Both the position numbers and the translations under genes were made by a program. A DNA stretch of 64,000 nt, from the NCBI GenBank assembly GCA_030390025.1, contig CM059431.1, positions 138,634,001 through 138,698,000 of the forward strand. The letters are read 5' to 3'. The notes beneath the pieces were generated by a model, which saw nothing but the letters and a program-made list of their open reading frames with translations, made no database searches and was not told where the DNA came from. The stretch is from Squalus acanthias (taxonomy: Eukaryota). Below are positions 13,113 through 61,820 of this stretch, piece after piece (within the stretch, counting starts at the first letter, position 1; every line of letters begins with the position of its first letter).

Positions 13113-13429
13113 GATCAAGAACAGCTGACACAGGAGGGATCCGGAGAGGCACTCCGCAGAAGGCCATGCCCACAGCGAGTATTCGGGGGCCATTTCCCCG
13201 ACATTAAAGGGAACCTGGATATGTACATGAGGGAAAAGAAACAGATAGATATGCTGATAGTGTGAGATGGTCCGGTGGGATGAGGCTCGTGCGGAGCAGA
13301 TACACCGGCACAGACCTATTCGGCTCTATTGCCTGTTTCAGTGCTATAAACTCAATGGTAATTCTATGTAGCGTCACTGAGGCACCTTCACTTCACCAAG
13401 GGGGCAGTCATCGAGCTATGTCACCTGCT

Positions 13430-19266: not shown

Positions 19267-19675
19267 CATTCCCGATTTGCTATTTGTACAAAAGCTCAGC
19301 TCTGCGGGGTGGGAGGTTCAATCATTTATCCATTATAAACACTACAGCCATATAACCAGAATCACCTGTGGATTTGTATTGAGATGTCTGCAGTACATTG
19401 TACGACAGATAGTATTCACCATCAGAGGGAACATTTCACCTTCACCCAGCTCGCCATGTTAAGTAAATATTAGTGTCCCATGTAGATTTGAAACTTCTCT
19501 CAGAAATTTGCTGTCAATCAAGATTCACATGAACTGTTTTAGTTTTCTAACTGTTTACGATTAAAATTTTGAAATAAATCTTGTTACATTTTACTGAAAA
19601 GCAGTGCAGTATATCGAAGCTTTCTTTGACAATATAACTAACATTGAAACCACTTTTTGTCTGTTCTAACTGAAG

Positions 19676-23049: not shown

Positions 23050-23720
23050 AACGTAAGAGCATAAGAAATAGGAGCAGGAGTAGGCCATTTGACCCTTCGA
23101 GCCTGATCCCCCATTCAATGAGATCATGGCTGATCTTCTACCTCATCTCCACTTGCCTGAACTATCCCCATATTCCTTGATGCCCTTAATATTCAAATAT
23201 CTATCGTTCTCTGTCTTGAATATATTCAATGACTGAGCCTCCACAGCCCTCTGGAGTAGAGAATTCCAAAGTTTCACACCCCTCTGAGTGACGACATTTC
23301 TCCTCATCTCAGTCCTAAATAGCTGACCCCTTATTCTGAGACTGTGACCCCTGGTTCTAGACTCCCCAGCCTTGGGAAACATCCTCCCTGCATCTACCCT
23401 CTCAAGCTCTAAGAATTTTGTATGTTTCAATGAGATCACCTCTCATTCTTCTAAAATCTAGAGAATATAGGCTTAGTCTACTCAATCTGTCCTGATAGGA
23501 CAATCCCCGCATCCCAGGAGCAGTCTGGTGAACCTTCATTGCGCTCCCTCTCTGGCAAGTATATCCTTCTTTAGGTAAGGAGACCAAAACTGTACACAAT
23601 ACTCCAGGTGTGGTCTCACCAGGGCCTTATATAATTGCAGTAAGACATCTTTACTCTTGTACTCAAATCCTCTTGTAATAAAGGCAAACATACCATTTGC
23701 TTTCCTAATTGCTTGCTGTT
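23050..23720 (-). mobile_element. CR1 LINE 3' fragment
   Basis: KANGMFAFITRGFEYKSKDVLLQLYKALVRPHLEYC; tail aagaaataggagcaggagtaggcc. Confidence 0.92.
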
Positions 23721-24475
23721 CCTGAATAAAAGCTATCAAAGCTCCCATCCCACCGCCGTTCACTTTCCAAGCTCAGAAACTGTTGCTTACTGCATTTGGA
23801 AGACAGATTGAGATTTATGCAGCTTGCAAATGTTCGGAGCACACTCTCTATCCATTGTCCCCTCACTGCAACAACATCTCTCATCATTGACAGATTGCTT
23901 CTATTACATCAGAATGGGTATGGTTTATACTGTCTCACCTTGGTCCTCAGAATCAGACCATGATCAGCCCCAACACCATCAGCACCAGGCACACCAGCAG
24001 CACCAAGAACCACACCAACCTTCTCCGCCATCACCTGATGCTGCACCAGACAGAGGGCATCAGCATCCGAGCACATTGTAGCCTGGGACGCCAGAGATGG
24101 CCTCATCAAGGCCAGATTTACTTCACTTGACGCTGCCACATGATGCGCCAGGTTGGCACCATCCCATAACAACAACATAAAGCATCCCTACAATGCCCAA
24201 GCCAGTCCTTTCACACTCATCAGCATTGCAGGGGGTACTGTTATGTCTCACCATTCACTGCAACTCACTAAGCCACTTCCAAACTTGCACACAGATCTGT
24301 CCAAGAAAGGAATGTATTGAAAATAAAGATTTCAATGTTTGACAGCACATTAACAGAAACTTCACATGAACATTGGCTAAAACACCCAAGTGCCTTCCCT
24401 TGTGCGTTGTTAGTTGTTATGATTGGACGAAGATGAATGTGAGTGTGCGTGGTGGCTGGTGAGATGGGGATGTGA

Positions 24476-27045
24476 TAAGAGCTTCTACAGGTAATTAAAA
24501 AGGAAGAGAGTAGCTGAAGTAAACGTTGGTCCTCTATAGGATGAGTCTGTGGAATTAATAATGGGAAACAGGGAAATGGTGGAGACTTTGAACAAATATT
24601 TTGTATCGGTCTTCACGTTAGAAGTCACGAAAAGCATCCCACTAATGGATAATCAAGGGACTATTGGGGTGGAGGGTAACTTAAAACAATCACTTTCACT
24701 AGAGAGAAAGTACGAGGCAAACTAATGGGACTAAACGTGGACAAGTCCCTTGGACCCGACGGCCTGCATACAAGAGTCTTAAAAAAGGTGTCTGCAGAGA
24801 TACGGGATGCATTGGTTGTAATCTACCAAAATTCCCTGGATTCTGGAGAGGTCCCAGCAGACTGTAAAACTGCAAATGTAACGCCACTATTCAAGAAAGA
24901 AAGGAGACAGAAACCAGGCAACTACAGTATTGACCAGTTAGCCTAACATCTGTCATTGGGAAAATGCTGGAGTCCATCATTAAGGAAATGATAGCAGGAC
25001 ATTTAGAAAATCATAATGGGCCAGAAATTCGGGTCGGAGGCTTCCCGCGGGTGCAAGCCCCCAACCTGCACTTACCTAGCGCACCTGCCCTTGTGTCTGG
25101 GCCCACTTGGAATACTGATCCTGGGCCTCCTCCAGCTGCCGGCGCGCAGTGCTCGCGTATCCCAGCGGCGCAGTTAGTTCGAAGCGTCCCCTAGGATCAC
25201 GTGGGCCATGGAGAGCCAATCAGAGCAGGGAATCTCCATTCATAGATTTGACAGGAAGACCTGTCAAATCTATGAATAGAGATCGGCCCCAAAACCTCAC
25301 TAAAACTTCAAATGAATTAACAAAAAAATCACATTTTAAAAATAACTATAAATTATACAAAATAACTATTTTAAACAATAATTTAAATTTTTGAAAAAAT
25401 TAATTGCAGTTTTTAACAGGGCTAAAATAAACTTACCTTTCTTTAAAGTATTTAAAAATAATAAACCTGTGGAAAAAATGTTTTAATTTTAGTTAATTCA
25501 CCACTTACCTTGTTAAAAGCTGGCCTTGCGCCTGCTTTTTCCCCGCGCAGCTGATAGGGACTTACCCTCACGGGGAAACCTGTAAAAAAAAAACACACAA
25601 AAAAACCGGAAGTTCGCTGCGTGCACGCTGCCTCCCCCGCGCACGCGGTTGAGCTCCGAACCCCTTCCTTCAAGGGAACGGAAGTTCCGGTTTCCCGTGC
25701 ATGCGCAGTGGGGACCCAAATTTCTGCCCCAATATAGTCAAGCAGAGTCAGCATGGTTTTATGAAAGTGAAATCATGTTTGACAAATTTTCTGGAGTTCT
25801 TTGAGGATGTAACGAGCAGGGTGGATAAAGGGGAACCAATAGATATCGTGTATTTGGATTTCCAGCAGGCATTCGATAAGGTGCCACATACAAGGCTACT
25901 ATACAATATAAGAGCTCAGGGGGTTGGGGGTAATATATCAGCATGGATAGAGGATTGGCTAACTGACAGAAAACAGAGAGTCAGGATAAAAGGGTCAATT
26001 TCAGGTTGGCAAACTGTAACTAGTGGGGTGCGGCCGGGATCAGTGCTAGGGCCTCAACTATTTACAATCTATATTAATGACGTGGATGAAGGGACCGAGT
26101 GTAATGTAGCCAAATTTGCTGATGATCCAAAGAGAGTTGGGAAAGCAAATTGTAAGGAGGACGCAAAGAATCTGCAAAGGGATATAGATAGGCTAAGTGA
26201 GTGGACAGGAATCTGGGAGATGAGTATTATTTGGGAAAATGCGAGGTTATCCACTTTGGTAGGAAAAATGAAAAAACAAATTATTATTTAAATGAGGAGG
26301 GATTCCAAAATGCTGAGGTACAGAGGGATCTGGGGATCCTTGTACACGAATCACAAAAAGTTAGCATGCAGGCACAGCAAGTAATTAGGAAGACAAATGG
26401 AGTGCTGGCCTTTATTGCAAAGGGAATGGAGTATAAAAGTAGGGAAGTCTTGTTACAACTGTACAGGATGTTGGTGAGACCACACCTGGAGTACTGCGTA
26501 CAGTTTTGGTTTCCTTATTTAAGGAAGGATATACTTGCATTGGAGGCAGTTCTGAGAAGGTTCACAAGGTTGATTCTGGAGATGAAAGGGTTGTCTTAGG
26601 AAGAAAGGTTGGGCCTATACTCATTGGAGTTTAGAAGAATGAGAGGGGATCTTATTGAAACATATAAGATTCTGAAGGGGCTTGACAGGGTAGATGTTGA
26701 GAGGATGTTTCCCCTCGGGGAGGTGGGGGGACCTAGAACTCGTGGGCACAGTCTCAGAATAAGGGGTCCCCCATTTAAAACAGAGATAAGGAGGAATTTC
26801 TTCTCTCAGATGGTCGTGAATCTGGAATTCTCTGCCCCAGAAAGATGTGGAGGCTGTGTCATTGAACATATTTAAGGCGGAGATAGACAGATTTTTGAAT
26901 GGTAAGTGAGCCAAGGGTTAAGGGGAGCGGGCAAGGAATTGGAGTTGAGGCCACGATCAGATCAGCTATGATCTTATTGAATAGCAGAGCAGGGTCGAGG
27001 GGCCAAATGACCTCCTCCTGCTCCTTCGTCTTATGTTCTTAGGTT
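24476..27045 (+). mobile_element. CR1 LINE 3' half, interrupted by a MITE
   Basis: [61 protein letters not shown]; tail cttatgttctt. Confidence 0.93.
25018..25730. mobile_element. Harbinger-type MITE (713 bp), related to 17160-17901 in opposite orientation
   Basis: TIRs GGGCCAGAAATTCGGGTC / GACCCAAATTTCTGCCCC; 3-bp TSD AAT; removing it restores the CR1 sequence gaaaatcataatatagtcaagcag. Confidence 0.9.
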
Positions 27046-27806
27046 CTTATAATGTAGATAGACAGAGAGGGATGGGTGGAGGTGCAAGGTAAGTTGATGT
27101 GAGTAAGGATGTGCAGGAGTAGGGTAGGGAAGGCCGAGTGATGAGTGACACAGCAGGATGAGGCTGAGTGTGGCTTTGCAGTAAAGTTTCGTGATCAACT
27201 GATATCATTGAAATGGTTGCGCTACTGCAGCCTCATCCTCCTGACGACATTCCTGCTTGTGTCCTCCTGTGCAATGTGCAACCAGGCTGTGTTGGTCTCC
27301 TGGGGAGATCTCTTCTGCCCATTGGAAGGGAAGGTAACCTCCCTGCGTGCTGTGACTCCCTCCATAAGCATATGGAGGGAGTTATGGGAGAGCCTGGGTG
27401 CAGCCGTGCTCCTCTGTGCAGAGGTTGTCAGTGTTTGCAGCACCTCAATACTGTAGAACACTGACATCACAATGGTCAAACTCAATTTGGCCATTGGCCT
27501 TTTAAGGAAACGGGCTGCTGGCGCATCCTCAATGACGTCATCAGACCTGCTTCCTCTAATTGGTCGGGAAACGCGCTGGGCGGGTCTTAACCAGCCAATC
27601 AAGGGAAAGTCTTTCTACAGAGCGGGGCCGTGACCCGCCACCGACCCCGGCCGCACCCGACCCGTCCAGGTAGGGAAATCACATGGGGAAACCGGGTTAT
27701 TAATTTCCTGAAGTACTTTCAGAGATTGCTATGATATCCGAGAGAGAAAAATATAACAGATCCGGGGTTTGATTCAGTTTGTTCCTCACTCTCTGTTTGT
27801 GTTTAG

Positions 27807-27893
27807 ACTGGGGAACAATAAACTGGGAGATTCAGGAGTAAAACTAGTGTCTGCGGCTCTGAGGAACCCGGAATGTAAAATACAGGAACTGGA
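27807..27893 (+). CDS. NLR gene LRR exon (87 nt)
   Basis: gtttag|ACTGGGG...CTGGA|gtaagt; [28 protein letters not shown]; phase 2-2. Confidence 0.92.
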
Positions 27894-28036
27894 GTAAGTA
27901 CCAGACTGTGTGAGATTGTGTTCATGATAACTGGATGTCTGACACTGTACATTATTAATAGTATCTGTAATAGTGTTATTTATAGACTCTGGGGATTTAC
28001 TCTGGTTCCTGCTATTTCTCTCTCTCTGATCCCCAG

Positions 28037-28207
28037 GCTGTATGATGTCGGTCTCACAGGTTCTTGTGCCGAGGATCTCGCCTCCGCTCTCAGTACAAAC
28101 CGCTCACTGACGGATCTGTATCTGGGTAATAATAAATTGGGAGATTCAGGAGTGAAACTAGTGTCTGCGGCTCTGAGGAACCCAGACTGTAAAATACAGG
28201 AACTGTG
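28037..28207 (+). CDS. NLR gene LRR exon (171 nt)
   Basis: ccccag|...|gtaagt; [56 protein letters not shown]. Confidence 0.93.
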
Positions 28208-28344
28208 GTAAGTACCAGACTGTGTGAGATTGTGTTTATAATAACTGGATGTCTAACACTGTACATTATTATTATCAGTAATAGTGTTATTAATAAACTC
28301 TGGCGAATTACCCTGATTCCTGTTATTTCTCTCTCTGATCCCAG

Positions 28345-28515
28345 GCTGGATGCTGTCGGTCTCACAGATTCTTGTGCCGGGGATCTCGTCTCCGCTCTCA
28401 GTACAAACCGATCACTGACGGTTCTGGACCTGGGTTATAATAAACTGGGAGATTCAGGAATGAAACTGCTGTTTGCGACTCTGAGGAACCCGGAATGTAA
28501 AATACAGTCACTGCA
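28345..28515 (+). CDS. NLR gene LRR exon (171 nt)
   Basis: cccag|...|gtaagt; [56 protein letters not shown]. Confidence 0.93.
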
Positions 28516-28655
28516 GTAAGTGCCAGACTCTGAGATTGTGTTTATAATAACTGGATGTCTAACACTGTACATTATTATTAGTATCAGTAATAGAGTTATT
28601 AATAAACACTGGGGATTTACTCTGATTCCTATTATTTCTCTCTCTTTGATCCCAG

Positions 28656-28826
28656 TCTATGGGATGTCGGTCTCACAGATTCTTGTGCCGAGGATTTCGC
28701 CTCCGCTCTCAGTACAAACCGGTCACTGACGGAGCTGAACCTGAGTAAGAATAAACTGGGAGATTCAGGAGTGAAACAATTGTCTGTTGCTCTGAGGAAC
28801 CCAGAGTGTAAAATACAGCAACTGCG
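28656..28826 (+). CDS. NLR gene LRR exon (171 nt)
   Basis: cccag|...|gtaagt; [56 protein letters not shown]. Confidence 0.93.
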
Positions 28827-28967
28827 GTAAGTACCAGACTGTGTGAGATTGTGTTTATAATAACTGGATGTCTGACACTGTACATTATTATTCGAATCAG
28901 TAATAGAGTTATTAATAAACTCTGGGGATTTACCCTGATTCCTGTTATTTCTCTCTCTGAACCCCAG

Positions 28968-29138
28968 GCTGGATGCTGTCGGTCTCACAGATTCTTGTGC
29001 CGGGGATCTCGTCTCCGCTCTCAGTACAAACCGCTCACTGACGGTTCTGAATCTGGGTAATAATAAACTGGGAGATTCAGGAGTGAAACTACTGTCTGTG
29101 GCTCTGAGGAACCCGGACTGTAAAATACAGAAACTGCG
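28968..29138 (+). CDS. NLR gene LRR exon (171 nt)
   Basis: ccccag|...|gtaagt; [56 protein letters not shown]. Confidence 0.93.
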
Positions 29139-29168
29139 GTAAGTACCAGACTGTGAGATTATGTTTAT

Positions 29169-30135
29169 TCTTCTCTTCTTAGGCATTCCCTCGGAACCGA
29201 GGATGACTTGCTTCCACATTAAAAATGAGTTCTCAGGTGACTGATGAGTCCAATGCGGGACCTACAGTCTCTGTCACAGGTGGGGCAGACGGTGGTTGAA
29301 GGGGCGGGTGGGTGGGGTGCTAGGGTTGACGTGCGCTCCTTGCGCTGCTTGCGCTGGGCTTCCGCTTGCTCCCGGCGAAGAGACTCGAGGTGTTTGGCGC
29401 CTTCCCGGATGCTTCTCCTCCACTTTGTGCGGTCTTGGGCCAGGGATTCACAGGTGTCGGTGGGGATGTTACACTTTTTCAAGGAGGCTTTGAGGGTGTC
29501 CTTGAAGCGTTTCCTCTGCCCACCTAGGGCTCTCTTGCCGTACCAGAACTCCGAGTAGAGCGCTTGTTTTGGGAGTCTCGTATCGGGCATGCGGACAATG
29601 TGACCCGTCCATCGGAGCTGATCGAGCGTGGTCAAAGCCTCGATGCTGGGGATGTTGGCCTGAGCAAGAACTCTGACGTTGGTGCGCCTATCCTGCCAAT
29701 GGATTTGCAGGATCTTGCGGAGGCAGCGTTGGTGGTACCTCTCCAGTGCTTTGAGGTGCCTGCTGTACATGGTCCATGTCTCTGAGGCATACAGCAGGGT
29801 GGGTATCACTGCTGCTCTGTAGACCATGAGCTTAGTGCCGGGTTTGAGGTCCTGGTCTTCAAACACTCTCTTCCTCACGCGACCGAAGGCTGCACTGGCA
29901 CACTGAAGGCGGTGTTGGACTTCGTCATCGACGTCTGCCCTTGTTGACAGTAGGCTCCTGAGGTATGGAAAGTGGTCCACGTTGTCCAAGGCCTTGTCGT
30001 GGATTTTGATAATCGGGGGGCAGTACTGTGTGGCGGGGGCAGGTTGGTAGAGGACCTTTGTCTTACGGATGTTTAGTGTAAGGCCCATGCTCTCGTACGC
30101 TTCGGTGAAGGTGTTGACGATGGTTTGGAGTTCGA
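29169..30135 (-). mobile_element. RTE-clade (BovB-like) LINE, 5'-truncated, open reading frame preserved
   Basis: GLTLNIRKTKVL, FPYLRSLLS, LLYASETWT, LRWTGHIVRMPDTRLPKQ, C-terminal CPTC...HLRTH zinc knuckle; tail gaagcaagtcatcctcg...aagaagagaaga. Confidence 0.93.
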
Positions 30136-30256
30136 CCTCCGCTCTCGGTACAAACCGCTCACTGACGGTTCTGAATATGGGTAATAATAAACTGGGAGAT
30201 TCAGGAGTGAAACTACTGTCTCTGAGGAACCCGGACTGTAAAATACAGAAACTGCG
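30136..30256 (+). pseudogene. Decapitated LRR exon (native acceptor and 5' part deleted at the RTE junction)
   Basis: [39 protein letters not shown] with intact |gtaagt donor and a 6-nt deletion relative to sister exons. Confidence 0.85.
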
Positions 30257-43508: not shown

Positions 43509-44586
43509 AGTGAGAGAGAGAGAGATAGAGAGAGAGAGAGAACAGAGGCTGGTGTACATGCAGAGCATGTCTGTGCTCAAGTTATCTGACATGTGCATTG
43601 GTACTGCATCTCATGTCTGGAAGAAACAGAAAGTATACATCAGTAGATCATGCTGATTTCATTCCAGACTGCACTGCTGTGGGATCTTACTTTGCCTTAC
43701 TTTCAAGACTTGAAAAAGTCAATGCTACATATATACATCAAACCATTTGTTTTTTCTGGACTGGACTTTATCAGGGAATCTTTTTGAGGTGTTTCAGAGC
43801 ATATGCTGCTGTGGGATCTTACTCTCCCTTTAATTCCCAACCCAACCCACCTAAGACAAGATTTTTGTAAAAACAAAGTATATATAATATATATTTTTAA
43901 GATTACTTTCAGAATAATCCATTTGATTTTTTTTGGACTGGGATTTATTGGGGAATGTGCTTGGCGTGTTTTCAGAGCAAAAGCTGCTGTGGGATCTTTC
44001 CATTCATTTTATTCCACTCCACGCAAATCACAGACAGGCAGATATTTTCCTTACAAAAGTAAAGTTCATAGGGGTAAAAATTCAGTTGGTTGCGCCTCCC
44101 GTTAGCGCCTTAAGAGGGCGCTAATGGGGCGCAAAGCCGCTAGCGCCCGGGCGCAGCGATGTTTGCGCCGCTCGGGAACTTAACTAGACATTGTGCGGCG
44201 GCGCTAAGCTTTACCGCCGCGACCACCTGCGCGCGCAGATTGTGACGTCATTCCATGGTGCAACGCCCTTGTGGCGCCCCGGAGCGGAAATTGAGTGGCG
44301 CCCCCTGCCTTACCACCTGGCGCATCCAACGACCGAAAGACTGGAACGCTATCAATCGCTGTGGGACTGGGGGGGGGGGCGCTATTTAAAGGGGGCCTCT
44401 TCCTGTCTTTTTCTGTGGTTGACATTTATGCACCACTCGTTCTGAGAGAGAGAGAGAGAGATTCGGAGAGAGAGAAAGAGAGACTTCTGCATTGAGTCAA
44501 CGCTTTGTGAGGTAGTTTTGCCTACTGATCCTAACTTCGCTACTACTTTGGTTGCTGTCCTTCATTACTTTGCATGCAAAGAGACT

Positions 44587-45747
44587 ATGGGGGCTGCACT
44601 GATTGGGGGCGACGTCCTGCTCCAGCTGAATCGGAGGACACAGAGACGCAGAGAGAGAGTGGCAATGATGGCCAGACGGAGGAGGGCCAACAGGCGTATG
44701 TACAGGAGAGCTTACCCTCCCAGGGTATATCGTGAACAGCTCTCCTACATTCATTTGTCTGAGGAGCTGTGTTTGCGAAGGCTGCGATTCAGCAAGGAGG
44801 TGGTCACTGAGCTCTGCCACCTGCTGCAGCCAGATCTGCAGCCTCAACTGAGGTCCAGGACATCTCTGTCGGTGGCAGTGAAGGTCACAGTGGCTCTCAA
44901 CTTCTATGCTACTGGCTCATTTCAATCTGCTGTTGGGGACCTCGCCAATATCTCCCAGTTCGCGGTGCATTGCTGCATCCGGCAGGTCACAAATGCCCTC
45001 TTTAAAAGGAGACGAGAGTTCATCTCTTTCCCCATGACCCCAGACAAGCAGCGTGACCGCGCTCTGGGGTTTGCGAGGATAGCGGGCTTCCCCATGGTGC
45101 AGGGCGCCATTGACTGCACGCATGTAGCTTTGCGTGCTCCACATGAGAATGCCGAGGAATTCCGGAACAGAAAGGGGTTCCATTCCTTGAATGTTCAGTT
45201 GGTCTGTGACCACAGACAGCTGATACTCGCTGTCAATGCCCACTATCCTGGCAGCTGCCACGATGCTTTTATCCTGCGCCAGACTACTGTGGCAGAACTG
45301 TTCGAGGCACCGCATCAGCCAGTTGGTTGGCTTCTCGGGGACAAGGGGTATCCATTGAGCACCTGGCTGATGACACCGCTCCATACGCCCAACACCCCTG
45401 CTGAGCTGCGGTACAATGAGAGCCATCAAGCTACCAGGATCATCATTGAGCGCACAATCGGCGTGCTGAAGCAACGGTTCCGCTGTCTCGATCATTCTGG
45501 AGGAGCCCTGCAGTACTCGCCTGAGCGAGTATCCAACTTCGTAGTTGTGTGCTGCATGTTGCATAACATGGCAATCGTCAGGACCCAGCCAATAACACCA
45601 GGCCTTGGAGCACCACCAGAGGAGGAGGAGGAAGAGAAGGAAGAGGACGAGGAGGATGATCATCAGCAGCACCAAGGCAGAAGGGCGGCCCACAATGGTG
45701 AAACTGCAAGAGCCGTCCGTCAACGGCTGATAGCAAGCCGCTTCTAG
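44587..45747 (+). CDS. Harbinger DDE transposase (HARBI1-like), intact single-exon ORF
   Basis: GAIDCTHV, NRKGFHSLNVQLVCD, PGSCHDAFIL, LLGDKGYP, YNESH..TRIIIERTIGVLKQRFRCL; ATG at 44587. Confidence 0.93.
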   Translation: MGAALIGGDVLLQLNRRTQRRRERVAMMARRRRANRRMYRRAYPPRVYREQLSYIHLSEELCLRRLRFSKEVVTELCHLLQPDLQPQLRSRTSLSVAVKVTVALNFYATGSFQSAVGDLANISQFAVHCCIRQVTNALFKRRREFISFPMTPDKQRDRALGFARIAGFPMVQGAIDCTHVALRAPHENAEEFRNRKGFHSLNVQLVCDHRQLILAVNAHYPGSCHDAFILRQTTVAELFEAPHQPVGWLLGDKGYPLSTWLMTPLHTPNTPAELRYNESHQATRIIIERTIGVLKQRFRCLDHSGGALQYSPERVSNFVVVCCMLHNMAIVRTQPITPGLGAPPEEEEEEKEEDEEDDHQQHQGRRAAHNGETARAVRQRLIASRF

Positions 45748-45992: not shown

Positions 45993-47890
45993 CTAAACAA
46001 AAGTTGGACCACGAACCTCGGCCTTTAATAAAAAAATGACCAGCATTTTGTCACACCTCCTACTTTTGCCCTTCGAGGGTGATCTCCTTCCCTTGCGCAC
46101 TTCCCCCCTTCTAACCCTATTGCTCCTCCGTAATGGGACCGCAATGGCTGCAGCAAGGCTGGTGGAAGGCTGCTGATCGTCAGACCCTGACACTGCAGAT
46201 GCCCCTGAAGGACGGCCTCGACTAGTTCTGGGCCTGGAGGGCCCGGCTGCAGACTGCACCAACTCTGCATGGGCGGCAGCAGTCTGTCCTACAGGCGGTG
46301 GCAAGTGCAGTGGAGAAGTGACAGTGTTGGCAGCAGGAATGCTGTCATCGTGAGAGAGGACAGCAACTCACTGCTCGCCCGACACACTGGCACTCCCACG
46401 GGGCAGCACTTCAGCATCCGGAGCAATCTGCTGGAGCACAGATTGCTGGCCTGCTGCGGCGCGGTGAGAGCCCCGGGGACATGTGAACGAACCATCGAGG
46501 TTGGCAGCAGTCAGTGCTCGCGTGGCCTCAATCTGAGTCTGCATGAGAGCAGTCAGAGATGGGATCACGGCAGTCAGTGACTGAATTGCTGCACTAAGCG
46601 TTAGTGTGGCATCCGCCTGTGCTAGAGCGAAGTGCTCCACACTCCTTGCCAGTGACTCAATGCATTCGGGCACCCTTCCCACTGCACCCAAGATCCCAGT
46701 GTGCATGCCCACCGCCTGGGTGTTCATTTCTGCGATCAGCCGCTCCTCCTCTGCATCCATTGCAGTAGGAGTCTCTGGCATACTCTCCCTCTGGGGAGAA
46801 GGCCCCCGTTCTTCCCTACCCCCATGGCGTTCCTGCAGCCCGCTGGGTCCTGGAGCTTCACCCTCATCAGACCCTTCCCCCCTGCTCCCCTCCAGGGAAG
46901 GCGTGTTCCCAGTGTGGGCATGGGCTTCCTCGGGTGAGGGTGGCACTGATGCTCCGGCTTCCTCTTTCTCCTCGGCTGCAGCTTCACTCCCAGTGGCAGC
47001 TTCAGGGCCCGTCTCCTCAGCTGGTGAATCACCATCTGAAAGCAGGGAGGTACAAGAGTGGCTTTAGCGTGAGGACAGGGTGGCAGTAAGGGAGGAATAA
47101 GTGCAGCGAGTTAGCAATTTGGATTGAAAGTGTCAAAGGCTGGTGTTGTGAGGGACAAGTGGAAGGACAGAGGACAAAAAGGTGATGACCTTACCATTGC
47201 TGTCCAGAACGGGGTCGGCGTCTCTAGTGGCGACGGGACCGATCACCCGGCTTGCCACAATCCTGTGGACGCGCTCCTCAAGATCACTGAGGGGTTGCAG
47301 CTGAGGCCGCCCTCCACCTGTCCGTTGCTGCTGTCTCCGATTATGCGCCAGCTTGGCCTGCAAGAAAAAGGACAGCATCTGAGTAAATATACAGCCATGG
47401 TCTTGCCTGATGTGCCTCCCATAGGTGAATAGCCCTTACTGTATGCAGCCTTGGTCTTTCCTGATGTGCCTCCCATAGGTGAATAGCCCTTACTGTATGC
47501 AAAGTGTGGAATGTGTGTGTGTGTTTCAAGAAAGGGCCATAGGTGTTGGATGAGTGTTGTGCATTGGGGTTTTAAGACCCTCTGGCCATAGAGTGAGGTT
47601 GAGATGGAGGGATGGAGAGGTATTGAGAAAAAGCCACTCACCCTGACGACCCGAGTGAGGTCGTTGAACTTTTTGCGGCATTGAACATGGGTCCTGGGCA
47701 CCATGCTCCTGGAGGAGACGCTCTGAGCCACCTCCCTCCACACTCTTCTGTACTCGCGTGGCAAAGACCTCCTGCCACTCTCAGGGAAGAGTATACATCT
47801 TCTGCGCTCCACCGCGCCAACCAGAGCATCCAAGGCACGCTCGGTGAAGCGATGAGCTCGTTCTGTCACCCTCTCCATCCTTGGCAGCAA
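45993..47890 (-). CDS. Harbinger Myb/SANT-like DNA-binding protein; exons 47890-47642, 47357-47195, 47035-45993; one in-frame TGA at 46370-46368
   Basis: RFTERALDALV...WREVAQSV...RTHVQCRKKFNDL; GT-AG sites with consistent phases (0, then 1); ORFs 46368-46946 and 45993-46304 share a frame. Confidence 0.85.
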
Positions 47891-48584
47891 AATGGATTCA
47901 CAGGTCTCTCCAGGCCTAGATTCAAGGCTGCAATGAGCAGGGTGTGTCTGGGGAGCAAGTTGCCCACCCCCCCCCCCCCCCCGCTTTAAGAACTGGCCGG
48001 TGCCAGTGTGTCTGTGTTCCCTCGCTAACTGGCAGCACCTGCGCTGCGCTCGCGCGCTGAGTTAGCGCCTCACTGCTCGGCCTTTTCGCCTTAAGACAGG
48101 TGTGCAGCACCTGATTTAGCGCTCCACTCACCTCCCGGGGCGGTAAAAGTGAAGTTTCCAGTCAGTGGCGATAATTAGCGCCAGGCGCTAATATTTGCGT
48201 CCAGATGATATTTGCGCCCCAAACGGGGCGCGACCTAATTTTTCCCCCATATATTATTATTACTTATTCTTGATAGTATTTACTTCTTTTCACCCACCGT
48301 CCCTGCCCATCTCACCCCCTACATGCCTGTTCACCCGCTCTACTCCCCCAGTCCCTTGTGGTCCTGAGCTCCACACTCACTCACGCAGGAGCTGAGTGGG
48401 CGAGCTGCAGCCACCATTCCTTCCTTCCTTCCTGCGCCATGTGCTGCCTGCCTGGGTGTGTCTGTGAGCAGCAGCACATCCTGTCAGCGGCTCCAGACAA
48501 TGGCTGCTCACAGAAGCCGGGCGAGACCCCGCTCTGCAACACAGGCTGCGCGCTCATTTAAAGTGACGGTTCATTGAAAAGTGA

Positions 48585-52970: not shown

Positions 52971-53022
52971 TTGGCCTGGATTTTGCAGTCAGCAGTGGAC
53001 TAGCAGCGCTCGCCGTTCATTA

Positions 53023-53450
53023 TGTTGTGGGAAATCACCACTCGGAGTCAGACTTAAAGATTCAACATGCAGTTTATTGAACAAAGCTTTGGGAGAAGTA
53101 GTGCACAGTCACTTCTTCTCAATTTAAAATGGCTGTTGTACTTCTTTTTATACATTCCACAAGCACAGCAGTCTTGGTTAGTTACACTTTAGCCAATTAT
53201 TCCCCCCTAGCAACAATGACCTCCAATTACATTCCTTTAAGAACAACCGTTATCTGGACCTTGGTGGTCTGGCTTTTGTCTGTTCTGTAGTTTCAGTAAA
53301 TGACAGGAGGTAGCTCAAGGTTGGTTAGCACATTTTAATGTCTTTTCACAGAGTCCATTTTGTTTCACAGAGTCCCTTTGTTTCACAGAGTCCATTTTGT
53401 TTCACAGAGTCCATTTTGTTTCAGGTAACCATCTCACTTTTACCACAACA
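53023..53450 (-). repeat. ERV 3' LTR
   Basis: TGTTGTGG...CCACAACA; preceded on the minus strand by PPT AAAAGGGGGAAT (53451-53462); AATAAA at 53073-53078; TATAAAA near 53146-53152; 19-bp U3 repeats. Confidence 0.96.
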
Positions 53451-53576
53451 ATTCCCCCTTTTGGTCCTGGAGGATGTTCACGAAATCCAGATGACCAAAC
53501 GACCTCTATGTGTGTGTGTATATCTTTGGGGAATCCACCTCCCTGGTGTTCCGCACATATGACTCCAAGTCACTCT

Positions 53577-55037
53577 TCACAGGTACCTGTCTAGGTCGCC
53601 CTCTCCTTCTCTGGCGTCTTCGGGTGTTCCCATTAGATGTTCTTCCTCAGTGGCCACGCTGGCCCCTGGCACAATCCGAGCCATCATGACTTTACAGCAG
53701 ATATTAAAACATCCGATAATCAAACAACAGACAATTATTATTATAACAAGAATAATTAGTCCATGCATTAAATAAGACCCCCAAGATCCCCCCAATAACC
53801 ATTCGAGCCAGCCATTCCCCTTCTTGGGGCCTTGTCTAAAGTCATCGAGCTGCTTTCTTATGTCATTAATGGCTTGGGTGATGTTGTAGGATTCATCTGT
53901 AACATGCGTTATACATTTGTCTCCGATTATTGTGCATACTCCCCCCTGCTGGGCTAACTGATAATCCACAGCATAGCGGGTCTGCTGCGCGTACAATCTT
54001 AATTCAGCCAGTTCTCGGTTGATGGCATCCAGCCCCTTTGCTGTGCTGTTTCCCAGAATGGTTAATCCACAGATAAGATAGTTCCTATTTTTAGTACTAA
54101 CCACTCCTGCTGTTCCCCCCAGAGACAGGGCCCCTAGAAACCCGTAGCCGAGTGAGGATCCCAGTGTGACCGGATCCTTCCAATCGGCACAAAATTCCTG
54201 GCTGATGGCCCGTGTTACTATCTTTCTCCGGGTATGCCCCTTTCGAGGGCATGGAACAGTGAGTGGTCCTATTGCTCCTACTGCAAAGAGGATCGGGAGG
54301 GTTGGTGTTGCCGTCGTGAAGGTACCGTCGAGGAGGAACACAAATCCCTTTTTGGCTCGGTAACATTTAACATCCTGGTTATTTCTCCGTACGAACTGAT
54401 TATACCGCCAATTGCTCGGTTCACTTGACTTTCCACCCGATCCTACCAATTGGTAAGTATCAAACGGGTATGTCCATGTGGCTGAGCTGACATGAGTCCC
54501 ATTACACTGACCACAAATGAATTGCCTCCCCGCGGTCACATTCAGGCATCTTTGCTCGTTACAGGTACAAGCAAACTGGCCTCTGTTTACTTGACAGTGC
54601 TGACGGGCACACTGCGTCTGTACACAGGAAACATTCTCGGGGACCAAGGCATATGCACACCCCCATCCTTGTCCCGAGAAGCAAAGCGGGTAGCTTGTAT
54701 CGTCTGAGCATACTCTCCCGTTTACTCCCCGGACCCCCCTGCACACAGGATTTGTGGAGTTTATTAGTTCCACACATCTTCCCTGTATACCCCTCCCATA
54801 TTGACCTGTATGTCCCTTACAGGGTACGTCCGAGGTATCTGCCGTATATAAATCAAGGGGGGTCCACCCGGGGGTGGCCACGAACAGGGCCTCTACGGAT
54901 TGGGCTAGCGGGTAACACACGGTTCGATTACCGTGTAAATGTACATGGGTCTTGTAAAATAAGTTATCTTTTAATCCTGTCAGCTTTACAACCGTGACAA
55001 CATAGAGTGACGCAATTATATACGCTATCTTAGACAT
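53577..55037 (-). CDS. env: Retroviral envelope glycoprotein, intact, 486 aa from the ATG at 55037
   Basis: Hydrophobic N-terminus, Cys-rich SU, basic cleavage region RRKIVTR, fusion-peptide-like LGYGFLGALSLGGTAG, heptad plus ISD-like QTRYAVDYQLAQQGGVC, CX6C, TM LIILVIIIIVCCLIIG, cytoplasmic tail. Confidence 0.92.
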   Translation of the reverse strand: MSKIAYIIASLYVVTVVKLTGLKDNLFYKTHVHLHGNRTVCYPLAQSVEALFVATPGWTPLDLYTADTSDVPCKGHTGQYGRGIQGRCVELINSTNPVCRGVRGVNGRVCSDDTSYPLCFSGQGWGCAYALVPENVSCVQTQCARQHCQVNRGQFACTCNEQRCLNVTAGRQFICGQCNGTHVSSATWTYPFDTYQLVGSGGKSSEPSNWRYNQFVRRNNQDVKCYRAKKGFVFLLDGTFTTATPTLPILFAVGAIGPLTVPCPRKGHTRRKIVTRAISQEFCADWKDPVTLGSSLGYGFLGALSLGGTAGVVSTKNRNYLICGLTILGNSTAKGLDAINRELAELRLYAQQTRYAVDYQLAQQGGVCTIIGDKCITHVTDESYNITQAINDIRKQLDDFRQGPKKGNGWLEWLLGGSWGSYLMHGLIILVIIIIVCCLIIGCFNICCKVMMARIVPGASVATEEEHLMGTPEDAREGEGDLDRYL

Positions 55038-55143
55038 ATTTGTTACGTTCCAACAATATAATATTAATTTGGACTTGCTTGCAGTCGTCACCTGTTTGGG
55101 GAAGGTATCCTGGTTACTTTATTGATTAATCGTGAATCGTATG

Positions 55144-55793
55144 CTACTCATTAATTTCTTTGTACAATTTCAGCTGGGTCCAATGTTTCCATACACCCTT
55201 CCCTCTTATGTCCAGACAGGCACAGGTGTCTCCACTGATTATGACCTCATATGGGCCATTCCATTTTGGTGCAAACCCCGGTTTTTCAGGTAATGTTTTT
55301 ACCATGACGCGACGTCCTGCCATCGGGACGGCAGGGAGCATTTCAAGCTCTCTCTGTGCGTCTCTTTCTTCCTGATTGTCTCTTACTAATTTACGCATCC
55401 CTTTTAGTTGGGCGCTTAGTTCCAAAACATATCGCTTAATTTTGTCCTTTAGTGGGCCTACATCGGCCCCACCTGTTATGATGTTTTCTGGTAATTGCAT
55501 CGCCCTTCCTGTCATTAGTTCATAAGGGGTTAATCCGGTTGTCCGGTTTGTCGTGGCTCTTAACTTCATTAATATAATCGGTAATACTTCTGTCCACGTT
55601 TTTCCTGACGTTTGCATGGCCTTGGCCAGGGCATTCTTAAGGGTTCGGTTCATGCGTTCTACCATTCCAGAACTCTGCGGATGGTAAGGGATGTGGAATT
55701 TTTGTTTTATTCCCATCAGTTGGCACACTGTTTTTATCACCTTTCCGGTGAAGTGCGACCCTTGATCCGAATCAATTTGTATGGGTGTTCCCC
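55144..55793 (-). pseudogene. pol: Integrase C-terminal half (pol remnant)
   Basis: WGTPIQIDSDQGSHFTG...HIPYHPQSSGMVERMNRTLK...TGLTPYELMTGR...PKWNGPY; HHCC zinc finger and first catalytic Asp are absent. Confidence 0.93.
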
Positions 55794-56308
55794 ATATTAA
55801 CTCTGTTCCCTTTAGTCTGTCCTAGATCGCGTTCCCAGCATATATCCCCGATCGGTCGGCCCTTTCCTGATGTATTGGTAAGGGCTAGAAAAGGAGGTAC
55901 TTTCGTATAATCATACGTCGGCTTGTACCATCCCTTAAAATTTTCTAACGAATATCCTCCCCCCTTAAACTCGTTTCTTAGGCTAGACCACTTTTGTTCC
56001 CATTTAATTCCGAAGGTGGATAGGGTGGTATTTTTCTGTTTTGTATGATTTTTATTAATTATCCATTCTGCCATATCTGTGAGGTTCAAGGGTATCGGTC
56101 GCAGAGGTATTCCTCCTTTCACATGGGTAGGAATATGGCTACATACCCAACAGGCGTTTATCCCACTTTTTTTGGCATACTTATATGACATATATACAAA
56201 AAAAGTGTTCATATGTAATTCTCGTTTCTTTCGGGGTTCTTTTCTTCTCCCTTGGCAGGCTATACATATCAGTCCGATTAGTAGGTAAAACGTAAATAAC
56301 AGCTTCAT
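55788..56308 (-). pseudogene. N-terminal fragment of a second env (signal peptide plus CWVC SU), joined out of frame to integrase
   Basis: MKLLFTFYLLIGLICIACQG signal peptide, RKKR, NTF, CWVCSHIP CXXC motif; ends at RVNMG. Confidence 0.8.
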
Positions 56309-58816
56309 TATTTAAGTCTTTTCAAATTCAAATTCAACTGTCCTTTCCGGTGTTCCAATTCTGCCCCGCCTGGGGTATCCTCTGTTTCTTCTATCTTCCT
56401 GATTTCAAGCAACATTACAGTTTAACATTTAATCAACAAATCATGGACTTAAAAGATTCTCCAGATCTCTCTTTTACTCATATCCATCTTGTGGATAATT
56501 CTTACTAAACATGATTTCTCCTTAGCCCTCAATTGTCCCAATTCAGATTCCAGGTAACTCTCCACTTCAACTTCAATTTCAATCCTTCTAACAGGTACCA
56601 GTGTGTTTAACTCTATTCTGATTGTTTCATTAATTAGATAGTTTCTCGATGGAGTATGTGTCAATGCTTTAAAAGTTGTCTTGCTCTCCTGAGCCACATT
56701 AACCATTTCATGTCTTGCTGTTGTCCAGTAACTGAGCATGTCTGAGACCCGTTCTTCAGTGCAGATTCACCATACATTCCCAGATGGTAATCGCTTCATA
56801 CGTAACAAATCACATTTGCACACTCATACCGGTATCTCAATATCATGCCACATGTGCCTTTCTCGGGCTTTCAGGTATCTTATCAAAAGACTGTCTTTGT
56901 TCATCTTCTTCTGCATGGTCCCAATATCTTGGATAGTGGCCAGGCTATCAAATTCAGTTTTCTTAAAAGTTCATTATAGGCAGGGACACAAATGTCTCCA
57001 AGAGAAAGCTATCAATTTACTATTCTTAACTGCACTTTCCTGACTTTCACTAGCAAGTTTTTTTAAAATTCCCATTCAGCAGTGTAATTTCTCCTGTTTC
57101 AATTTTATACATCCCATTAATTACCATTCATATCTCATTCATGAGCCCTGGAGTAACTTTACTGTCCAGTACAATATTTAAGATTGAAAACATAGATTAA
57201 ACATTCTCACTAGGTCCAAGTTACTAACACTTTTTATTTATCATTATTTTAGAGGATCTTTTATTTTCCCAAAAGTAACCCAAAATATATCTAGTGCCTG
57301 AGTCTATATTGTTATTACAAAATTATCCCAAAATCCAAACAGCAGTACTGTTGAACTGATTGACAAAACCCATGTTCAATTTCATTTCTATCAATTTATC
57401 TTCCATTTCCAATTTCAGAAACAAATGATTTCCAGGCTAGGTGGTTTATACAGTGTTTTAACATTAGAGACAGAAGTGCTGCAATTAGTTTACAAGGTAA
57501 CTTCCATATAACAAAAGAAAGAAGAGAATCCATTGTGACTCTGCTTAGAGCCCAAGGGGTTAATTTATCAAATCATAATTTTCCTTCTGTCACTGTGGGG
57601 AAATATTAACTTAAAATTAATAATGTCCAATATCTTTAAATGTCACACCGAAGTTATTGCTTGATGAACTTAATCAGCTGTCAGTGGAAAGGGTTAACTC
57701 CTTTGCAGGTTTTTAAGAAGGTGGAGCAAAACATTATCAGGCGCACGCAATTGCGTCACTTCACGTAAATTAAAAAAAAACTTTCCCGATCCAAAAAAAG
57801 CAGTTGTGTTTTCACACTTTAACTGAACACGAACAGAACAGATAAAACAAAACAAAATAGCACATGCTTGCAGAACTAGTAAATTATATCATATTTCTTA
57901 TTGTCCTTTCTTCAGATATCTTTCCAAAATACTGTAAAAACATTGAATTTAAACAAATCAAATCAGAGTGCTTTGGAAGATTTCACCATAGCAACCGCAA
58001 CTCCAAGGTTAAATCTTAGACCGAAACTTAATCTTTTGTTAAACAAACTTTTTTTTTTTTTTTTTTGTTGTTCTTCTCAGTTTTTACACACCAGCTTAAC
58101 TTAAATTGTAATTCAAATTATTATTTATTTATTTTTATTTATTTTTTTCTCTGGCACAATGCTTTCCCTGCAAAGTCTGATATAAAATTCCTGTCTATCC
58201 CTGACAGTAAAGGTGAATTTCCTTGTGATTCCTCTGCCAATGGTATGGACCAGAACCCATTCTGTATCCAAGACTGTAAATATTTCAAAATCTGGTTTCA
58301 GACCATTAAATATCTTATTCAATGCGGTCTACACAAATTTACACCAACCAGAATTTCACCGTGCACAATGAAAGTCTGGTTTTTAATAGGTTAATTAACC
58401 TCAATAATTCCAATTCAATCCAGATCAATTTTTTTTAAACTAACCAGTGTCAGTTGCAAAATAAAGAACACATCGTCACATTAACAAAGAAACAATTACC
58501 ATGCCTTGTAAACATTCAAATTAATTGTCATTTTCTTTCCAGGCACATTGGCAACTGTGACTTCAAGGCTGAAGCTTATACCTCTTTTGTAAAACAATTA
58601 ACAAACTTAAAACAACACACTTGAGTATCATTCAAGACAAGTCTTCAAAGAGTTAAAAACAGCTTTTAGCTCTCTGTACAAAAGAGTGGGTGGAGCTAAA
58701 ACATAAACAAACTGACAGACACTTTTTTTAGGCAGATTTTTTTTTCCAGGGACAAAATAATACTGTAACTTAACAAACTTAAACATTCACACAATCAGGA
58801 ATCTTTTACACACTTT

Positions 58817-59188
58817 TCACACAACTGAGATCCCAGTATTCCTTTTAAGATTCCTTTCACTCAACAAATCTTGTATATATGTATATGTATATATATATAT
58901 ATGTATATTGTCAGTATTCAATCGTTTAGTCCCATTCCATGGTCTGTTATTAGTCAAATTCATCAAACTGGTAGTATTGAACCACCAGCTTTCCATGGAA
59001 CTCCCTGCCCCGTACGTAATAAACTTTTGTATGCAACGACTTTTCCCCATATTAACTCTCTGTTGTTCTAAGGTCTGGGAAACATCCCAGCCATCCTTTT
59101 GCATCTTCTTAATCAACGAGCGTCTGTCTGTCATATATTTATCAATAAGGGAACCTGCAGGTCCCCACTTAGTTTCCCCATCTTTCAT
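58817..59188 (-). CDS. Chimeric short ORF: possible gag N-terminus fused to an env SU segment
   Basis: First ATG ORF after the leader; RVNMG junction shared with 55788-55804; three N-glycosylation sequons downstream. Gag identity is by position only. Confidence 0.45.
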   Translation of the reverse strand: MKDGETKWGPAGSLIDKYMTDRRSLIKKMQKDGWDVSQTLEQQRVNMGKSRCIQKFITYGAGSSMESWWFNTTSLMNLTNNRPWNGTKRLNTDNIHIYIYTYTYIQDLLSERNLKRNTGISVV

Positions 59189-59189
59189 C

Positions 59190-59454
59190 TTACGGGCTTT
59201 TAAACCCCCTATCTTGCGGGCTTTTAAACCCCCCTCTCCTACGGGCTTTTAAACCCCCTATCTGTTTATACTCACGGCCACGATTACCGTCTCAGCAACG
59301 TGTTTCCTCCACCGGAACCCTCGTCTCTTACGGGCTTTTAAACCCCCTATCTTGCGGGCTTTTAAACCCCCCTCTCCTACGGGCTTTTAAACCCCCTATC
59401 TGTTTATACTCACGGCCACGATTACCGTCTCAGCAACGTGTTTCCTCCACCGGA
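59190..59454. repeat. ERV leader repeats (CGGGCTTTTAAACCCCC units within a duplicated ~140-bp block)
   Basis: Block 59188-59314 is repeated at 59327-59454. Confidence 0.9.
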
Positions 59455-59895
59455 GTCCGGCTCTAGGTCAGGGTGATCAGCTCCTTACCGCACCGCTTAA
59501 AACTACAAACAGTACATACTCGTGAATTCTTATACTTTATGTACCTCTGCGTTTGTTCGCCACTACAGAGTTTGATGCCGAATGGTCCTTACTACTTGTG
59601 CTTCACGATCCTAAGTGCCTTGGTGCCTCTACGCCCACTTTATGGTCCTGACCATCGCGTGGGGGATTTCCCCTCTTAACAACCGGTCTAAGGCTGCGCG
59701 TTTGAGAAAGGCACTTCCTTGTCCTTAGTCGATCAGCACAAGCAATCAATTCCCGTTTCTATCCGATAGTCCCATAAATTCCCCTAATTTTTACCGGTTT
59801 TTAACTGCATTGTTGGCTCAGTCTGACTCCCACAGTTCAATAATCTCTACTCCAGTTCGCTGATCGAGGCCAACCGATCAACTCACCAGCAGTGA

Positions 59896-59914
59896 GATCC
59901 TGTTCGTGACGCCA
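59896..59914 (-). promoter_or_regulatory. ERV primer-binding site, tRNA-Lys(UUU)-like, followed by a splice donor CTG|GTGAGT at 59886
   Basis: TGGCGTCACGAACAGGATC three nt inside the 5' LTR boundary; compare Lys3 PBS TGGCGCCCGAACAGGGAC. Confidence 0.8.
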
Positions 59915-59917
59915 ATT

Positions 59918-60345
59918 TGTTGTGGGAAATCACCACTCGGAGTCAGACTTAAAGATTCAACATGCAGTTTCTTGAACAAAGCTTTGGGAGAAGTAGTGCA
60001 CAGTCACTTCTTCTCAATTTAAAATGGCTGTTGTACTTCTTTTTATACATTCCACAAGCACAGCAGTCTTGGTTAGTTACACTTTAGCCAATTATTCCCC
60101 CCTAGCAACAATGACCTCCAATTACATTCCTTTAAGAACAACCGTTATCTGGACCTTGGTGGTCTGGCTTTTGTCTGTTCTGTAGTTTCAGTAAATGACA
60201 GGAGGTAGCTCAAGGTTGGTTAGCACATTTTAATGTCTTTTCACAGAGTCCATTTTGTTTCACAGAGTCCCTTTGTTTCACAGAGTCCATTTTGTTTCAC
60301 AGAGTCCATTTTGTTTCAGGTAACCATCTCACTTTTACCACAACA
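59918..60345 (-). repeat. ERV 5' LTR (promoter)
   Basis: Identical by eye to 53023-53450 except position 59971 (AATAAA to AAGAAA on the minus strand). Confidence 0.96.
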
Positions 60346-60689
60346 ATTACACTTCCACTTGGCCACAGATTTTCTCCGGGCTTTTGCTCTGGAAAATTGC
60401 GGTGATTAGAAATCCAAAACAGCGCGGCGACCTCTACAGGGGATCTGGGACACAGGTGAACAGGCCAAGCAACTGTGCAACTCCTCAACCAATCAGATTA
60501 AAGAATCCTTACTGAGGCTCTCAGCGTCTGAACCAGGAAGCGTAAATTAGAATAGTTAATTCAGTGACAAATCAAGCACAGAAAGCGAAATAAAGAGAGA
60601 AATGTAAACTGCAAGTAAGAGAGTGAGAGATACAAGAGACAAAAGAAAAAGTTAAAGAACTTTTTTTTAAAACTTCACCAATAATTCCT

Positions 60690-61820
60690 TTTTTCTTCAT
60701 TCTTGGGATGTGGGCGTCTCTGGCAATGCCAGCATTTAATTTCTATTCCTAATGCCCCTTGAGAAGGTGGTGATGGGCCACCTTCTTGAATCACTGCAGT
60801 TCATGAGGTGAAGGTACTCACATATTGCTGGTGATATATTTCCAAGTCAGGATCATATGTCACTTGGAGGGGAACCTGGAGGTGGTGGTGTTCCCATGCG
60901 CCTGCTGCCCTTGTCCTTCTAGGTGGAAGAGGTCGCAGGGTTGGGATGTGCTGCTGAAGAAGCCTTGGCGAGTTGCTGCAGTGCATCTTGTAGATGGTAC
61001 ACACGGCAGCCACGGTACGCCGGTGGTGGAGGGAGTGAACGTTTAAAGTGGTGGATGGGGTGCCAATCAAGCGGGCTGCTTTGTCTTGGATGGTTTCGAG
61101 CTTCCTAAGTGTTGTTGGAGCTGCACTCATCCAGGCAAGTGGAGAGTATTCCATCACACTCCTTTGTTGTGCCTTGTAGATGGTGGAAAGGCTTTGGGGA
61201 GTCAGGAGGTGAGACAATCGCTGCAGAATACCTAGCCTCTTACCTGCTCTTGCAGCCACATTATTTTAGTCTAAGTTTCTGGTTAACGGTGACCCCCAGG
61301 ATGTTGATGGTGGGGGATTCAGCGATGGTAATGGCATTGAATGTCAAGGGGAGGTGGTTAGACTCTCGCTTGTTGGAGATAGTCATTGCCTAGTACTTTT
61401 GTGGCACGAATGTTACCTGCCACTTATCAGCCCAAGCCTGAATGTTCGCCAGGTCTTTTTTGCATGCGGGCATGGACTGCTTCATTATCTGTGGAGTGGT
61501 GAATAACGCTGAACACTGTGCAGTCATCAGCGAACATCCCCACTTCTGACCTTATGAAGGAGGGAAGGTCATTGATGAAGCAACTGAAGATGGTTGGGTC
61601 GAGGACACTGCCCTGAGGAAATCCTCCAGCGATGTCCTGGGGCTGAGATGATTGATGTTCAACCACAAGAACTATCTTCCGTTGTGCTTGGTATGACTCC
61701 AGCCTGTGGAGAGTTTTTTCCCTGATTACCATCGACTTCAATTTTACTAGTGCCCCTGGATTCCACACTCGGTCAAATGCTGCGTTGATGTCAAGGGCAG
61801 TCACCCTCACCTCACCTCTG
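60690..61820 (-). mobile_element. CR1/L2-group LINE 3' region
   Basis: ALDINAAFDRVW, PQGSVL, MFADD, RSVMEYSPLAW, IQDKAARLIG; 3' tail at 60690-60800. Confidence 0.9.

Follow-up and report, generated by a model that had tools for sequence, protein, structure and literature searches.

Several described systems bear on the locus analysed here, an endogenous retrovirus (ERV) with an intact envelope gene (env) in a 64,000-nucleotide (nt) stretch of the Squalus acanthias genome (assembly GCA_030390025.1, contig CM059431.1, positions 138,634,001 to 138,698,000 of the forward strand), hereafter the window. As characterised in the available part of its description, recKoRV1 consists of KoRV ends with a segment of PhER, an older element, between them (PMC6112702). 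For cartilaginous fishes, the accessible sections of Barreat and Katzourakis 2024 (PMC11521997) place ERV ectodomains as sister to the glycoproteins (GP) of Ebola-, Cueva-, Marburg- and Dianlovirus and tabulate 14 chondrichthyan loci, Rhincodon included, at E-values of 1e-8 to 1e-17; within those sections, there is no description of an intact, full-length env that is very young and multi-copy, nor of the cleavage and cysteine features of such an env. With regard to envelope proteins (Env) more broadly, a furin site and the third cysteine of the CX6CC motif are given as gamma-type hallmarks in the available portion of PMC9967133, and the available text of bioRxiv 2021.11.23.469661 describes an internal fusion loop between cysteines for avian-type Env, along with CXnC variants that were already known.

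Set beside these systems, the window holds a real, young, non-autonomous recombinant shark ERV that is unusual in combining an intact full-length filovirus-like shark env with a permuted insert bearing a 17-nt terminal repeat. The reading favoured here, at a probability of about 0.72, is that the ends of the element derive from one retroviral family (family 1) and its centre from another (family 2), that the recombinant was copied in trans, and that env is intact through the youth of the element, most likely the explanation in preference to adoption by the shark. Contigs of four public runs were compared with the window over 53451-60900: X6 and X13, which are DNA by guess, and X1 and X9, which are RNA by guess, with organism labels A, A, A and B for X6, X13, X1 and X9, respectively. 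More widely, 17 of the 20 runs listed carry at least half of the sampled words (9 studies). Organisms C, D and E, with shares of 0.53, 0.52 and 0.33, and F, with 0.05, do not enter the evidence. Paired long terminal repeats (LTRs), a target-site duplication (TSD), a primer-binding site (PBS) and a polypurine tract (PPT) are all present, as is characteristic of an ERV, and the anatomy reads as follows.

60345 to 53023, minus strand: provirus, recognised by its LTRs, TSD, PBS and PPT
60346..60349, unstranded: TSD on the 5' side, 4 bp (ATTA on the plus strand)
59918..60345, minus strand: 5' LTR, 428 bp, TG...CA, with a TATA-like box at 60047
59897..59914, minus strand: PBS-like 18-mer with a TGG start, after a 3-nt spacer from the 5' LTR
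59881..59889, minus strand: consensus splice donor, whose intron would start at 59886
59188..59454, minus strand: 138-bp tandem duplication in the leader, missing in the X9 contig
55092..55105, minus strand: splice acceptor, its AG ending at 55092, 54 nt ahead of the env ATG
53577..55037, minus strand: env, 486 amino acids, open, with the ATG at 55037 and the stop at 53577
53452..53462, minus strand: PPT
53023..53450, minus strand: 3' LTR, 428 bp, TG...CA, with a canonical polyadenylation hexamer at 53078
53019..53022, unstranded: TSD on the 3' side, 4 bp (ATTA on the plus strand)

An earlier sequence-only reading had reported 428-bp LTRs with one mismatch, an ATTA TSD and an uninterrupted env of 486 residues, all of which hold, the mismatch lying at 59971. 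One mismatch in 428 bp corresponds to a K of 0.0023 (95% range 0.00006-0.013); if rates between 0.2 and 2.2 x 10^-9 per site per year are assumed, the point estimate translates into an age of about 0.5-6 million years. At this LTR divergence, the neutral probability that env is free of stops and indels is about 0.78 (0.24-0.99, with the indel rate assumed to be one tenth of substitutions), so co-option is not needed to account for the open frame. The sequence-only reading had itself allowed that env might be intact only because the insertion is recent, and that reservation is largely borne out by the neutral expectation at this age, by an env that looks multi-copy and by the env relatives that end early (below). 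Additionally, env contigs of all four runs agree with the window nearly letter for letter: the long ones listed show 0 differences in X6 (1,394 nt), X9 (880 and 1,154 nt) and X1 (931 and 895 nt), and a few divergent low-depth contigs also map. That env is identical under organism labels A and B may mean that the two are closely related, that a single species carries both labels, or that the sequence was transferred recently.

The second line of evidence is the mosaic composition of the interior, in which no gag, pro or pol gene is complete.

59060..59188, minus strand: putative gag N-terminal stub, 43 codons, assigned by position
55788..59059, minus strand: circularly permuted insert of 3,272 nt, derived from another ERV family that is far more abundant
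58934..59059, minus strand: short downstream piece of a second env (env-A), moved to the start of the insert
58173..58328, minus strand: decayed, frameshifted reverse transcriptase (RT) motif of the second family
55788..56308, minus strand: 5' part of env-A, with signal peptide and CWVC motif, truncated and without a transmembrane subunit (TM)
55144..55794, minus strand: C-terminal half of integrase, open, 216 codons, with epsilon/gamma-like fish ERV relatives

Depth and gene relationships both separate the insert from its surroundings. The X6 contigs have depths of about 1,240-1,850 across env, the integrase end and the leader, and of 8,700-97,000 over about 55,700-58,900; X13 has a similar step and X9 a larger one, and it is this rise over the centre that marks the insert as belonging to a much more abundant family. 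Env-A is a classical fish gamma-type envelope with 30 relatives at E<=0.001, the full-length ones matching TLV_coat and carrying CX6CC in all 11 cases; it had no match among the longer proteins. The window env and the env-A relatives fall on separate sides of a branch with 100/100 support in a comparison of 23 rows. As to the junctions, the right one is spanned by X9 rec28, and X1 rec3 extends 22 nt into integrase, while X9 rec30 and X1 rec6 span the left one; contigs of other runs cross both, so the mosaic exists outside this assembly as well. As a separate observation, the inserted family reaches a depth of 100,000-330,000 in X9, about 20 times that of a fragment of a long interspersed nuclear element (LINE) which is far deeper in the DNA runs; the inserted family may be a non-autonomous ERV family with a very high level of transcription.

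Equally distinctive is the order of sequence within the insert. An identical 17-mer occupies both of its ends (59059-59043 and 55804-55788), the copies lying 3,255 nt apart, and a terminal repeat of this kind arose in 1 of 500 shuffles. The 17-mer lies within the env-A frame, and env-A continues right after its left copy, from which it follows that the insert is a circular permutation of one unit plus 17 nt. In line with this, an env-A profile aligns over positions 4-156 at 56290-55784 and over positions 148-182 at 59065-58934 (the latter weak when taken alone, iE 0.21), and an X13 contig departs from the window at 55788 with 17 letters equal to 59042-59026, the stretch that follows the left 17-mer. 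Furthermore, integrase homology in relatives begins at a Trp overlapping the last bases of the right 17-mer, which is consistent with a template switch guided by microhomology. A single lap of RT on a circular template, RNA or DNA, would predict a short terminal repeat and is a tentative explanation that we rate below even odds; the distance between the polymerase and RNase H sites of RT is roughly 18 nt, close to the 17 nt by which the insert exceeds one unit. Alternatively, the permutation may have come from a template that was tandem or dimeric, or from three switches. Within the insert, a test of low sensitivity picked out no arrangement of LTR, PBS or PPT, which argues against a 1-LTR circle.

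The flanking pol remnant has a different origin. The integrase half lacks the zinc finger and the region of the first catalytic Asp, matches rve at E 7.5e-6, is 74% identical to P0044, its closest Pol relative, and reaches a profile iE of 5e-69. Calling the element gag-pol-less was therefore an overstatement, given this open 216-codon stretch at 55794-55144. The further claim that protease, RT and RNase H are missing stands for protease and RNase H, neither of which was matched by 39 Pol relatives or a Pol profile, and is put in doubt for RT by the weak motif at 58328-58173. Two side observations concern the integrase region: a second haplotype with four linked differences (55672-55687) occurs in all four runs, and an X6 contig of depth 1,274 skips 200 bases at 55242-55443. 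Both may reflect sub-families or a related element.

The intact env itself encodes a signal peptide, a Cys-rich surface subunit (SU), an SU/TM site at residue 276 and a membrane anchor at about 416-455. Its relatives number 10 among 7,817 candidates, at 45-80% identity, and the six that are named are all sharks, which indirectly upholds the cartilaginous-fish host proposed from sequence. In TM, Cys283 and Cys323, both conserved across the env family and presumably joined by a disulfide, flank a hydrophobic stretch, an arrangement like the internal fusion loop of avian-type Env; a glycan site (N330) lies in the first heptad repeat (HR1), and a CX6C motif occurs without the third Cys. Cys323 and the HR1 glycan align with filovirus GP2. 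The third CX6CC cysteine is present in 0 of 12 env-family rows and a K/R-X-K/R-R furin site in 0 of 10 aligned sequences spanning the SU/TM boundary; as both are missing family-wide, their absence does not represent damage. The idea of a broken furin site as the sign of a restriction factor is rejected on this ground. The SU/TM site fits what we take to be an SKI-1/S1P-like pattern, as a candidate only. Avian gamma-type (alpharetrovirus-like) Env shares the Cys pair round a hydrophobic stretch past the cleavage site, as well as the HR1 glycan, whereas the window env lacks the third CX6CC Cys and a canonical furin site, and its match to the TM of avian sarcoma and leukosis virus is weak (E 0.6-0.8).

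Against structures in the Protein Data Bank (PDB), filovirus GP2 is the top match of the env TM, at 69.7 bits versus 33.4 for syncytin-2, on the understanding that the top chain carries only the label 'Envelope glycoprotein' and its filovirus identity is inferred. Altogether, 38 of the 56 PDB matches outrank the first syncytin, and the family profile reaches E 1e-19. A control fish gamma-type env, P0015, scores 52.3 bits to the same PDB chain versus 55.1 for syncytin-1, so part of the filovirus affinity is general to fish envs; judged by these sequence scores, the env family is shifted towards filoviruses beyond that general affinity. For SU, features lie at 0.92-0.93 to the Avian_gp85/TLV_coat clusters, which is a lead, and no solved structure is related by sequence; one CXXC at residue 175, a candidate counterpart of the CXXC in the SU of gamma-type Env, is kept in 8 of the 9 relatives covering it. 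Like the shark clade in the accessible sections of PMC11521997, the window env is a shark ERV env with filovirus GP2 as best match; unlike the ectodomain fragments reported there, it is intact, full-length, young and apparently multi-copy, its membership of that clade being by likeness and not by tree. The window would provide a whole, unmutated member of the shark env group proposed as the source of the filovirus GP2 ectodomain. Ancestral features could then be studied on a natural full-length gene: the internal fusion loop, the glycan in HR1, the lost SU-TM cysteine and the non-furin site.

One env relative deserves separate mention: P0013 (XP_048473945.1, Rhincodon typus), a RefSeq model named 'erythropoietin receptor isoform X1', joins an env-family ectodomain to a receptor-type membrane anchor and tail. 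The ectodomain spans residues 6-402 and scores 61% against the window env. Either an intronic ERV was spliced onto EPOR in the making of the gene model, or the env-EPOR chimera is genuine, in which case it is reminiscent of v-mpl.

Taken as a mechanism, the favoured reading would run as follows. A recently active shark retrovirus (family 1) would have packaged, along with its own RNA, that of family 2, an older and very abundant resident ERV, and the two would have recombined in the course of reverse transcription. Family 1 would have contributed the LTRs, PBS, leader, gag stub, integrase end, env and PPT, with most of gag-pol exchanged for a 3.27-kb permuted stretch of family 2 containing decayed pol and the truncated second env. 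With its cis signals intact, the recombinant could then have been copied in trans by helper Gag-Pol to tens of near-identical loci; Env would probably be made from an ordinary retroviral spliced RNA, and env would have been kept intact by the needs of the ancestral virus, with too little time since then for the copies to decay. The sequence-only claim of a non-autonomous element mobilised in trans is supported by the lack of any complete gag or pol, the fresh TSD and the near-identical LTRs, and further by the deep identical env contigs and the presence of both recombinant junctions in contigs of other runs. Much of this parallels recKoRV1, which likewise has young-virus ends, an older, degraded, transcribed centre, microhomologies, many copies and use of a helper's integrase; in the available part of PMC6112702, however, the recKoRV open reading frames are disrupted, whereas the window env is whole. 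The window insert also differs in having no recognisable LTR, in its circular permutation and in its 17-nt terminal repeat. In this sense, the recKoRV style of disabling an invading retrovirus would extend to sharks, with env surviving, and the permuted insert may preserve the trace of an RT that copied a circular template.

Several points weigh against this account. Contig depth is not true copy number, which limits the estimate of roughly 35-70 env copies per genome; that estimate is drawn from the X6 env contig, whose depth of 1,240 is about 70 times the value of about 17 for the lowest-depth contigs listed, an excess that in itself points to many loci, as does the env-like depth of the junction contigs. 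The listed contigs agree with the window throughout about 2.9 kb of env and integrase, and the 1.1 kb of leader and LTR hold two clean private differences; the contrast involves too few differences to test, yet as a matter of sequence it would not speak against selection. No helper element was found, no genome search having been made. Moreover, the gag stub matches no family and is without database support, and the RT motif is weak (tblastn E 9e-4; profile iE 0.03-0.06). As to a helper, one is weakly hinted at by an X1 contig that breaks at 55795/55796, where the integrase junction is predicted to lie. Related loci were absent from viral and metagenome contig collections, and among titles and abstract openings in the literature, with subscription journals mostly outside, neither the window element, nor shark env co-option, nor a permuted ERV insert was found.

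The alternative that survives best, though it remains unlikely, is that the family stays env-competent by supplying Env to an env-less helper, the two spreading through joint reinfection. Env is complete, the sole whole gene of the element, identical across runs, and provided with both splice sites. These lie where the sequence-only reading placed them, at 59886 (donor) and 55092 (acceptor), and the env ATG is indeed the first ATG past the acceptor, 54 nt downstream. The acceptor is plausible by position but does not rank in the top ten AGs of the element for pyrimidine richness. In unspliced RNA, 104 ATGs precede env, so env would need a splice. Simple retroviruses express env via spliced RNA, and since any of them needs this splice, the two sites are inherited features and no special configuration; the description of an env expression cassette falls on this ground and on the presence of a second env and a permuted insert. 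The donor is crossed unspliced by X1 rec7, X9 rec30 and X6 rec22, and the acceptor by X1 rec2, X9 rec27 and X6 rec18, so an unspliced form exists. Of 87 contig joints, 15 are listed, and 59887-to-55091 does not occur in that list, which is not evidence of absence given that contigs drop rare forms. Among the 20 runs listed, none is on record as RNA; depth in X1 is an even 155-510 across the whole recombinant, without the excess over env-A of the DNA runs, a hint that X1 is RNA and the recombinant transcribed. Against an env-supplying role, which the sequence-only reading had proposed and which finds no support here, youth alone accounts for intactness, no helper has been identified, and the non-canonical SU/TM site leaves processing unproven.

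Early co-option of the locus by the host, as a fusogen or receptor-blocking factor, was also suggested from sequence, and is considerably less probable. Besides the intact env, it can draw on the sole LTR-LTR difference, which lies inside the 5' polyadenylation hexamer, where a change would favour read-through into env; the chance of such a placement is about 0.7%, a figure obtained post hoc. Every contig of X1, X6, X9 and X13 has the canonical letter at 59971, so the change, a single mutation, is either specific to this copy or introduced in assembly. The suggestion lacks support on other grounds as well: beyond the neutral expectation given above, the family is very young and looks multi-copy, there is no sign of a fixed orthologous locus (the 5' flank is repetitive, so that filled and empty insertion sites are unreadable from contigs), and 5 of the 10 env relatives end ahead of the membrane anchor in protein records. 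Syncytins, Fv4 and HERV-T, as presented in the available portion of PMC9967133, share with the window an intact env in a defective provirus, but they are fixed, selected single loci with demonstrated expression and function, whereas the window env is read from sequence alone. Weakest of all, and only marginally credible, is the proposal that the mosaic is an assembly chimera or one DNA-level insertion of family 2 into one provirus, for although the insert is high-copy and error-prone for assemblers and the 17-bp direct repeat resembles a TSD, both junctions recur in contigs of independent runs under two organism labels and in an env-like depth class, and the 17-mer belongs to the env-A frame and not to the target.

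A more far-reaching scenario extends the recombinant reading and is held here as doubtful: a shark retroviral lineage with a filovirus-GP2-like, furin-independent Env would have entered germlines in very recent times and in more than one species, the most common of its relics would have captured exactly one circular-template lap of a resident ERV, and this defective transcribed family would supply the helper's Env.

With respect to the remaining cis signals, the PBS is presumably of the tRNA-Ser(CGA) type, as a candidate only, and its 18-mer string had no match in a literature search. U3 opens with 4.3 copies of a 19-nt unit (60239-60318 and 53344-53423), likely an enhancer repeat, and the array varies between run contigs. 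Rfam returned no match.

Elsewhere in the window, a nucleotide-binding leucine-rich-repeat (NLR) gene on the plus strand (19648-30254) comprises a NACHT exon at 19648-21417 and at least 6 leucine-rich-repeat (LRR) exon repeats at 27808-30254; it lies about 23 kb from the provirus, and no LRR exon occurs beyond the provirus. An open PIF/Harbinger-type transposase frame (DDE_Tnp_4, E 6e-41) is accompanied by an opposite-strand frame resembling a Myb/SANT partner (44446-45747, 47243-48061), and a 22-nt minisatellite of 74 copies with 96% matches extends over 11490-13114.

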